Origin: Escherichia coli
GTDB taxonomy: Bacteria; Pseudomonadota; Gammaproteobacteria; Enterobacterales; Enterobacteriaceae
Length of the DNA stretch: 36,574 bases
Strand: one strand, 5' to 3'
NCBI RefSeq assembly: GCF_003334335.1
Contig: NZ_QOWQ01000043.1
Shown here piece by piece: positions 31,932 to 33,501 of the stretch. Position numbers and translations under genes: made by a program. The number at the start of each line of letters is the position of its first letter. Position 1 is the stretch's first letter. A model generated the notes under the pieces. That model was not told the DNA's origin, searched no databases, and was given only the letters and a program-made list of their open reading frames with translations.

Positions 31932-33056
31932 ATGGTCGATACAGAAATTTGGCTGCGTTTAATGAGTATCAGCAGCTTGTACGGCGATGATATGGTCCGT
32001 ATCGCTCACTGGGTGGCAAAACAGTCGCATATTGATGCGGTTGTATTGCAGCAAACAGGGCTTACATTGCGGCAGGCACAACGCTTTCTTTCATTTCCAC
32101 GAAAGAGTATCGAAAGCTCACTTTGTTGGTTGGAGCAACCCAACCATCATTTAATTCCTGCGGACAGCGAATTTTATCCTCCTCAACTTCTGGCGACGAC
32201 AGATTACCCCGGCGCACTGTTTGTTGAAGGAGAACTGCACGCGCTGCATTCATTTCAGCTTGCCGTAGTGGGGAGTCGGGCGCATTCATGGTATGGCGAA
32301 CGATGGGGACGATTATTTTGCGAAACTCTGGCGACGCGTGGAGTGACAATTACGAGTGGACTGGCGCGTGGAATCGATGGTGTAGCGCATAAAGCAGCCT
32401 TACAGGTAAATGGCGTCAGCATTGCTGTATTGGGGAATGGACTTAATACCATTCATCCCCGCCGTCATGCCCGACTGGCTGCCAGTCTGCTTGAACAGGG
32501 GGGCGCTCTCGTCTCGGAATTTCCCCTCGATGTTCCACCCCTTGCTTACAATTTCTCACGAAGAAATCGCATTATCAGTGGTCTAAGTAAAGGTGTACTG
32601 GTGGTGGAAGCGGCTTTGCGTAGTGGTTCGCTGGTGACAGCACGTTGTGCGCTTGAGCAGGGGCGAGAAGTTTTTGCCTTGCCAGGTCCAATAGGGAATC
32701 CGGGAAGCGAAGGGCCTCACTGGTTAATAAAACAAGGTGCGATTCTTGTGACGGAACCGGAAGAAATTCTGGAAAACTTGCAATTTGGATTGCACTGGTT
32801 GCCAGACGCCCCTGAAAATTCATTTTATTCACCAGATCAGCAAGACGTGGCATTGCCATTTCCTGAGCTCCTGGCTAACGTAGGAGATGAGGTAACACCT
32901 GTTGACGTCGTCGCTGAACGTGCCGGCCAACCTGTGCCAGAGGTAGTTACTCAACTACTCGAACTGGAGTTAGCAGGATGGATCGCAGCTGTACCCGGCG
33001 GCTATGTCCGATTGAGGAGGGCATGCCATGTTCGACGTACTAATGTATTTGTTTGA
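31932..33056 (+). CDS. dprA: DNA-processing protein DprA (Smf)
   Basis: 374 aa, divergent from def, Rossmann-like core ([17 protein letters not shown]), recognised as E. coli Smf. Confidence 0.9.
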
Positions 33057-33501
33057 AACCTATATTCACACAGAAGCTGAGTTGCGTGTGGATCAAGACA
33101 AACTTGAACAGGATCTTACCGACGCAGGTTTTGAGCGAGAAGATATCTACAATGCCCTGCTATGGCTGGAAAAACTTGCTGATTATCAGGAAGGGTTGGC
33201 AGAACCGATGCAACTGGCCTCGGATCCTCTCTCCATGCGTATTTATACACCGGAAGAGTGTGAACGACTGGATGCCAGCTGCCGTGGGTTTCTGCTTTTC
33301 CTTGAGCAGATTCAGGTGCTCAACCTTGAAACTCGTGAAATGGTGATAGAGCGAGTGCTCGCGCTGGATAACGCAGAGTTCGAACTGGATGATCTGAAAT
33401 GGGTGATCCTGATGGTGTTGTTCAATATTCCGGGCTGCGAAAATGCGTACCAGCAAATGGAAGAATTACTCTTTGAAGTGAATGAAGGTATGCTGCATTA
33501 A
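33028..33501 (+). CDS. smg: Smg protein (DUF494), function unknown
   Basis: 157 aa, [35 protein letters not shown] ..., acidic. Overlaps the dprA 3' end by 29 nt. Confidence 0.9.

Follow-up and report, generated by a model that had tools for sequence, protein, structure and literature searches.

In Neisseria meningitidis, the genes dprA, smg and topA are co-transcribed, as established by reverse transcription PCR (RT-PCR), and Smg's function is not known (Hovland et al. 2017, PMC5817196). Here we analyzed the corresponding genes in a 36,574-nucleotide stretch of the Escherichia coli chromosome (RefSeq assembly GCF_003334335.1, contig NZ_QOWQ01000043.1; hereafter the window), in which dprA is also followed by smg and Smg is also of unknown function, while third place is taken by yrdD instead of topA; yrdD encodes a stand-alone TopA C-terminal zinc-ribbon domain. 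Unlike in N. meningitidis, dprA and smg share 29 nt at their junction, an overlap seen only in the Enterobacterales.

Two kinds of overlapping genes offer a comparison for this junction. In ATGA/TAATG termination-reinitiation pairs, as at dprA/smg, same-strand neighbors of one operon have overlapping frames. However, the stop codon of such pairs lies 1–4 nt from the downstream start and the downstream Shine-Dalgarno (SD) sequence is expected to be weak or absent, whereas the smg start is followed 26 nt further downstream by the dprA stop and smg is preceded by GAGGAGG, which forms a −12.5 kcal/mol duplex with the anti-SD. The DprA tail also resembles C-terminal extensions overprinted after stop loss, in which read-through into the neighboring coding sequence (CDS) brings selection in two frames, but the dprA stretch is very short at nine codons and a function of the tail is only putative. 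Both genes and their overlap are already present in every E. coli annotation, and DUF494, to which Smg belongs, is a recognized family of unknown function. We regard the junction as an ordinary operon junction that arose by stop-codon loss, with both frames apparently selected and with an SD of smg's own. What a comparison across relatives adds is a silent smg change that would truncate the DprA tail, the retention of Smg in genomes without dprA, and the gene order dprA-smg-topA. We consider the explanation as a whole, namely a stop-loss junction, SD-driven translation of smg, dual coding and a Smg that is independent of DprA, to be probable.

Geometry and origin of the dprA/smg overlap

The original prediction for this DNA placed the smg start inside the last 10 codons of dprA, in a different frame and with an overlap of 29 nt. 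Open reading frame (ORF) coordinates and the identical RefSeq annotation bear this out: both genes lie on the plus strand, smg is read in frame +1 with respect to dprA, and the overlap touches the last nine sense codons of dprA plus its stop (Table 1). RefSeq gives identical coordinates for dprA and smg in strain FORC 064 and the same junction in K-12 MG1655 (smf, b4473, 3432436–3433560; smg, b3284, 3431991–3432464), and the 2.3 kb around the junction was found in 5426/5426 complete E. coli genomes. Since an in-frame TGA stands five codons upstream of the smg ATG, position 33028 is the first possible start and a longer smg ORF is excluded. The SD of this start is formed by the dprA codons TTG AGG AGG (Leu-Arg-Arg, 33012–33020), while no SD stands before the following in-frame ATG (codon 6, 33043; −0.6 kcal/mol). 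Conservation of the family's N-terminus also supports the start at 33028: across 110 diverse representatives, the alignment of the N-terminal helix (D)VLMYLFE begins at E. coli Smg residue 2, and many homologs carry four extra N-terminal residues. The smg SD forces a tandem AGG AGG for the Arg-Arg of DprA (33015–33020), AGG being the rarest arginine codon in E. coli.

We scanned one genome per species with a 21-sequence Smg alignment and kept the best 80 Smg loci, mostly from close relatives; in every locus dprA, smg, yrdD, tsaC and def were placed and the junction was measured. Nine more distant loci were obtained through exact-protein look-ups. The smg gene lies directly downstream of dprA in 78/80 of the genome loci and in all nine distant metagenomic or genomic loci, the exceptions being genomes that have lost dprA. 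Every sampled Enterobacterales locus with an intact dprA (70/70, including the E. coli reference, L001) has an overlap of exactly 29 nt and a TGA stop. These loci come from Escherichia, Citrobacter, Enterobacter, Klebsiella, Erwinia, Pantoea, Pectobacterium, Dickeya, Serratia, Yersinia, Rahnella, Hafnia, Edwardsiella and others, and their DprA tails follow the pattern R-[LI]-R-R-A-[CSG]-H-V-R-R-T-x-V-x-x. This constancy holds in spite of saturation at synonymous sites between these species.

Outside the order the two genes are separated. In eight of nine loci from Aeromonas, Vibrio, Photobacterium, Agarivorans and the Alteromonadaceae (a metagenome-assembled genome), the dprA stop precedes the smg ATG by 2–34 nt and the SD is kept, and DprA in these outgroups ends in GGYV-R-x-RR-(N/G) and the stop. 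The ninth locus, from Aliagarivorans (L073), was mechanically called as an 8-nt overlap, but its translated tail has an in-frame stop just before the ATG, and its junction probably resembles that of its relative L077. In the nine distant loci the gap is 1–116 nt. Comparison of the overlapping and gapped junctions thus shows the overlap to be derived in the Enterobacterales by loss of an ancestral stop codon. Moreover, outgroups in which Smg begins with Met-Phe-Asp use TTT for Phe2, with which the enterobacterial dprA frame would read GTT TGA and stop after His-Val, and so a 29-nt overlap needed two changes, the loss of the stop and TTT>TTC. The comparison yields the following course of events. 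The ancestral gammaproteobacterial dprA ended in GGYVRLRR(N/G) with its stop between the smg SD and ATG. The ancestor of the sampled Enterobacterales then lost that stop, and smg codon 2 turned into TTC, removing the back-up TGA, so that DprA is now read for 11 more codons (A-x-H-V-R-R-T-x-V-x-x) to the TGA contained in the conserved smg Phe9-Glu10 codons.

Translation of smg and its relation to dprA

The prediction went beyond the geometry, proposing that smg translation is likely coupled to dprA termination and that the expression of the two genes is tightly tied. One part of this stands, since a scan between dprA and smg returned no promoter-like and no convincing terminator-like site, which makes co-transcription likely and co-expression plausible. 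Classical coupling, in which ribosomes finishing dprA at 33054–33056 would move back by ∼26 nt and re-initiate at the smg ATG, with dprA translation setting the output of Smg, would fit this same-strand arrangement, in which neither a promoter nor a good terminator intervenes. It would also fit the energy needed to open the smg initiation region (−15 to +6), which at 11.1 kcal/mol lies at the high end of the range of 3.4–11.8 kcal/mol over 22 genes, and the ancestral layout with a stop 2–8 nt before the ATG has coupling geometry. Post-termination ribosomes can indeed move both ways over short distances. However, efficient coupling typically goes with overlaps of 1 or 4 nt, and here the dprA stop lies 26 nt beyond the smg start. 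The SD of smg is the strongest of the 22 window genes scored and stands at optimal spacing before the ATG. A strong SD precedes smg in 64/70 overlapping loci and also in gammaproteobacterial outgroups that lack the overlap, where GGAGG is kept, and it is conserved where the gap between the genes is 1–116 nt. Together with the retention of smg, presumably expressed, in genomes without dprA, this makes classical coupling quite unlikely.

The reading that we prefer is that smg would be translated mainly by direct initiation at its own GAGGAGG and the ATG at 33028 rather than by termination-reinitiation, while dprA ribosomes may help slightly by opening the moderately structured initiation region. 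The local RNA fold around the junction is no better than that of shuffled sequence (z = 0.13). The minimum free energy fold at 32997–33027 places the SD in a loop of 9 nt whose closing stem is GGCUAUGUCC/GGGCAUGCC; both stem arms encode the conserved GGYV motif and the spacer and are therefore nearly invariant, which leaves covariation nothing to show.

Genomes that have lost dprA bear on the second part of the claim. In a 27% GC endosymbiont contig (L083, 4729–5474), the order is def <-> smg-tsaC-aroE without dprA and yrdD, and a 272-bp AT-rich spacer ends before the smg ATG in ATTGAGGA, a remnant of the old SD. Candidatus Steffania (L068, 6001–6471) also keeps smg without dprA and yrdD, and in a Pantoea stink-bug symbiont (L047, 5669–6471) dprA is decayed and smg intact. 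Across these three loci, where dprA is deleted or decayed, the N-terminus of smg is intact and an SD remnant persists. Further Smg entries in AFDB come from Buchnera, Ca. Tachikawaea and Ca. Pantoea edessiphila. A tight tie between the two genes is therefore not upheld: co-expression in one operon is plausible, but smg is kept where dprA is gone and stands 1–116 nt away from it in nine distant lineages. As far as genomes tell, smg is not functionally tied to dprA and Smg is independent of DprA, and its retention in reduced genomes without dprA suggests a role that is probably housekeeping rather than competence-specific.

Apparent selection on the two reading frames

Across the 70 loci, Smg codons 1–10 are invariant in amino acid except at M6, with up to six synonymous codons in use. 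Read in the dprA frame, these changes alter the amino acid in the last five codons of DprA, where T/S/F/I, N/D/H/T/Y, V/L, F/L/S/P and V/I occur. This smg-synonymous codon variation within the overlap indicates clearly that the smg frame is translated and constrained from codon 1.

The dprA frame was assessed through the conserved two-fold-degenerate codons of smg in 67 species. Of 39 such codons, 35 show both codons, the minor one usually in 10–30 species. The four that are frozen (67/67) are Phe2 TTC, Asp3 GAC and Phe9 TTT, all inside the overlap, and Glu145. Frozen sites thus make up 3/5 inside the overlap vs 1/34 outside (Fisher p = 0.004, for species that share ancestry and with only five sites inside the overlap). 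Positions 33033 and 33036 each open an Arg codon of the DprA tail, CGA and CGT respectively, and the third base of F9 is the first base of the dprA stop. An smg-silent change at each is predicted to alter DprA: F2 TTT would create a premature dprA stop, D3 GAT would change Arg to Cys, and F9 TTC would add eight residues. These three synonymous sites do vary in outgroups without the overlap and in L083, the endosymbiont contig that lacks dprA, which argues against a generic constraint on the initiation region as the reason for their being frozen. The length and the two arginines of the basic DprA tail therefore appear to be under selection as well, which would make the 29 nt dual-coding; the bias is shown statistically and its cause is what we infer. 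Since F2 TTC>TTT is silent in smg and truncates the DprA tail, the importance of the tail is open to a clean experiment.

Alternatively, the overlap could be a neutral by-product: drift would have removed the old stop, leaving a tail without function that the N-terminus of Smg dictates wholly. The last five residues of the tail do vary freely via smg-synonymous changes, the tail extends beyond the DprA sequence common to the non-overlapping outgroups (GGYVR-x-RR), and HVRR is largely forced by Met-Phe-Asp of Smg. However, a neutral origin does not account for the three sites able to truncate the tail, make Arg>Cys or remove the stop being invariant in 67/67 species when 35/39 comparable sites vary (p = 0.004), nor for their varying again in the outgroups and the dprA-less endosymbiont, and the 29 nt required two changes, stop loss and TTT>TTC. 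We consider neutrality unlikely, though it deserves some weight.

Several points count against dual coding, SD-driven initiation and stop loss as set out here. The shared ancestry of the species and the five sites inside the overlap limit the frozen-site test. F2 and D3 lie at +5/+8 of the smg mRNA, where constraint on the initiation region could also act. The high opening energy leaves room for coupling by unfolding, and the shares of SD-driven and dprA-dependent initiation are read from sequence features only. Lastly, the best-80 sampling left out Morganellaceae, Budviciaceae and Pasteurellales, and as a result the point at which the overlap originated is only bracketed.

The junction also raises the question of frameshifting, as the smg frame is +1 relative to dprA and GUU UGA A at the dprA stop resembles the CUU UGA C of prfB. 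After a programmed +1 slip at [G/A]UU_UGA, ribosomes would read on in the frame of smg, yielding a DprA-Smg fusion; the U of the dprA stop is frozen, and databases contain fusions of the DprA winged-helix domain (DprA-WH) with DUF494 (P0020, P0086 and a 524-aa Salmonella 'Smg'). In prfB, an SD-like stimulatory element stands 3 nt upstream of the slip site. Here the only SD-like element is 33 nt upstream of GUU UGA A, unlike in prfB, and a normal SD and ATG account for smg. The database fusions occur on single contigs with differing junctions and further frameshifts, as expected of indel errors in the overlap. Programmed frameshifting is therefore barely conceivable. On their own account, the apparent natural fusions P0020, P0086 and AFDB A0A756D3T6 (from E. 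coli and Salmonella), whose differing junctions fall within the 29-nt overlap, were rejected as real fusions and look like single-contig indel errors turned in-frame by the overlap.

The Smg protein and the dprA-smg-topA neighborhood

Smg was described in the original prediction as a small acidic DUF494 protein, and this is correct: the 157-aa product has an isoelectric point of 4.05 (35 D+E vs 10 K+R) and matches Pfam PF04361 (DUF494) over its full length (E 3.1e-59, residues 1–157 on model positions 1–153 of 153) and the NCBIfam equivalog NF002897 with 292.7 bits (cutoff 191). Like the rest of the family, E. coli Smg has the typical length (about 150–165 aa), a full-length hidden Markov model match, the motifs YLFE, AGF, W46, R71, E77, E104, W125 and the C-terminal His, and a place downstream of dprA. 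In the alignment of 110 representatives, G34, R71, E77 and E104 are invariant and L5, Y7, F35, W46, W125 and H157 are at least 90% conserved, and Smg is one of the better-conserved E. coli proteins without known function. The AlphaFold2 (AF2) model has eight helices, arranged as two helical halves joined by a variable loop (predicted local distance difference test score, pLDDT, 86.5; predicted TM-score, pTM, 0.80), with a disordered C-terminus that ends in the conserved His. This C-terminal His (residues 155–157, window 33490–33498) is conserved in 93% of the 110 Smg sequences and is disordered both alone and in a modeled fusion to YrdD; it may serve for docking or for binding metal at the end of the chain.

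Searches for a function gave little to transfer. In the literature searched no function of Smg is reported; we found only PMC5817196, in which it is unknown, and one mention of the dprA-smg neighborhood (10.1101/2024.07.01.601547). Foldseek against AFDB50 returned only Smg orthologs among the 50 matches listed, and the fold searches gave no relationship on which a function could be transferred; a sequence search of the PDB returned only de novo designed helical proteins (E 1e-4 to 0.6), which we judged to be a spurious similarity to idealized helices. A RecX-like regulator of RecA that acts with DprA in recombination would explain in functional terms why smg is tied to dprA, but homology to RecX was rejected (hhalign against E. 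coli RecX, probability 2%). A significant resemblance to the RecX-like three-helix-repeat proteins in both structure and profile was not obtained, and such a role is very improbable.

Gene context suggests other partners. In distant lineages smg is located between dprA and topA. Full-length topA directly follows smg in 8/8 distant loci with downstream DNA, and the recurring wider order is rsmB-fmt-def <-> LysM protein-dprA-smg-topA-tsaC. In E. coli, yrdD starts 28 nt after the smg stop with almost no SD of its own (−1.0 kcal/mol), and residues 12–173 of YrdD are 47% identical (E 1.6e-53) to residues 589–751 of the TopA encoded after smg in L086. This identity and the gene slot indicate that yrdD is a stand-alone TopA zinc-ribbon domain in the old place of topA. 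The conserved order and the yrdD relic point to topoisomerase I as the first candidate for a partner of Smg. With low confidence, and from gene context, we propose that Smg, being small, acidic and helical, acts as partner or modulator to one of the DNA-handling proteins encoded in the conserved dprA-smg-topA neighborhood, most probably topoisomerase I or its zinc-ribbon C-terminal domain (YrdD).

A bolder version joins this proposal to the overlap. Stop loss would have given the enterobacterial DprA a selected basic tail, R-L-R-R-A-x-H-V-R-R, and acidic Smg, taken as specific to Beta- and Gammaproteobacteria, would be the shared partner or modulator of a single-stranded DNA module made up of the DprA tail and/or the TopA/YrdD C-terminal domain. 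If true, the overlap would make a binding tail evolve in sequence together with the N-terminus of the ligand that it binds. We hold this version to be doubtful and largely speculative. Three points bear on the proposed partnership with topoisomerase I or YrdD. A fused AF2 co-fold, Smg-(G4S)6-YrdD, with a paired alignment of only 31 rows and without the predicted aligned error (PAE), reached a pTM of 0.40 with no sign of docking and left the Smg tail unordered; weak as this test is, it lends a complex no support. TopA C-terminal domains beside smg are of two Pfam types, Zn_ribbon_Top1 or Toprim_C_rpt, which makes a specific zinc-ribbon partner less plausible. The neighborhood also contains the translation genes def, fmt, rsmB and tsaC.

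Table 1. Positions in the window of the dprA/smg junction elements and adjoining features.
Feature	Position	Strand	Basis
dprA (smf) CDS, 374 aa, DNA-processing RecA-loading protein	31932..33056	+	ORF, NCBIfam, RefSeq
smg CDS, 157 aa, DUF494, all-alpha, acidic	33028..33501	+	ORF, Pfam, NCBIfam, AF2
Dual-coding overlap (apparent), 29 nt; Smg M1-E10 and DprA tail HVRRTNVFV plus stop	33028..33056	+	ORF coordinates; same length in 70/70 Enterobacterales loci with intact dprA
dprA stop TGA, built from smg codons F9-E10 (TTT GAA); first base is third position of F9	33054..33056	+	Sequence
TGA in smg frame, 5 codons upstream of ATG	33013..33015	+	Sequence
smg SD GAGGAGG, 7 nt before ATG	33014..33020	+	−12.5 kcal/mol duplex with anti-SD
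Frozen synonymous smg sites: C of F2 TTC (33033), C of D3 GAC (33036)	33033..33036	+	Invariant in 67/67 Enterobacterales
yrdD, 180 aa, four zinc ribbons	33530..34072	+	TopA similarity; NCBIfam topA partial matches
tsaC, L-threonylcarbamoyladenylate synthase; next gene of dprA-smg-yrdD-tsaC-aroE-yrdB	34077..34649	+	RefSeq; cluster conserved in loci compared
def-dprA divergent intergenic region; presumed promoter region of dprA-smg cluster	31803..31931	.	Position

The window as a whole runs from gsp genes through the S10, spc and alpha ribosomal-protein operons, mscL and trkA to rsmB-fmt-def on the minus strand; beyond def lies dprA-smg-yrdD-tsaC-aroE-yrdB on the plus strand, and then come yrdA and the start of an rRNA operon. 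The dprA product matches the NCBIfam DprA equivalog NF008007 with 701.8 bits (cutoff 495). In the def-dprA intergenic region, the sole promoter-like match of our scan is on the minus strand; matches in a search for CRP-S-like sites were no commoner than chance, with none convincing upstream of dprA. Further along the cluster, aroE and yrdB overlap by 4 nt in a GTGA-type junction (window 35469–35472), and the 3′ ends of yrdB (plus strand) and yrdA (minus strand) overlap convergently by 25 nt (window 35702–35726). Ahead of rpsM, the Rfam family Alpha_RBS matches at 22942–23053 with 102.7 bits, which is the S4 autoregulatory leader of the alpha operon, a known element expected at this position.

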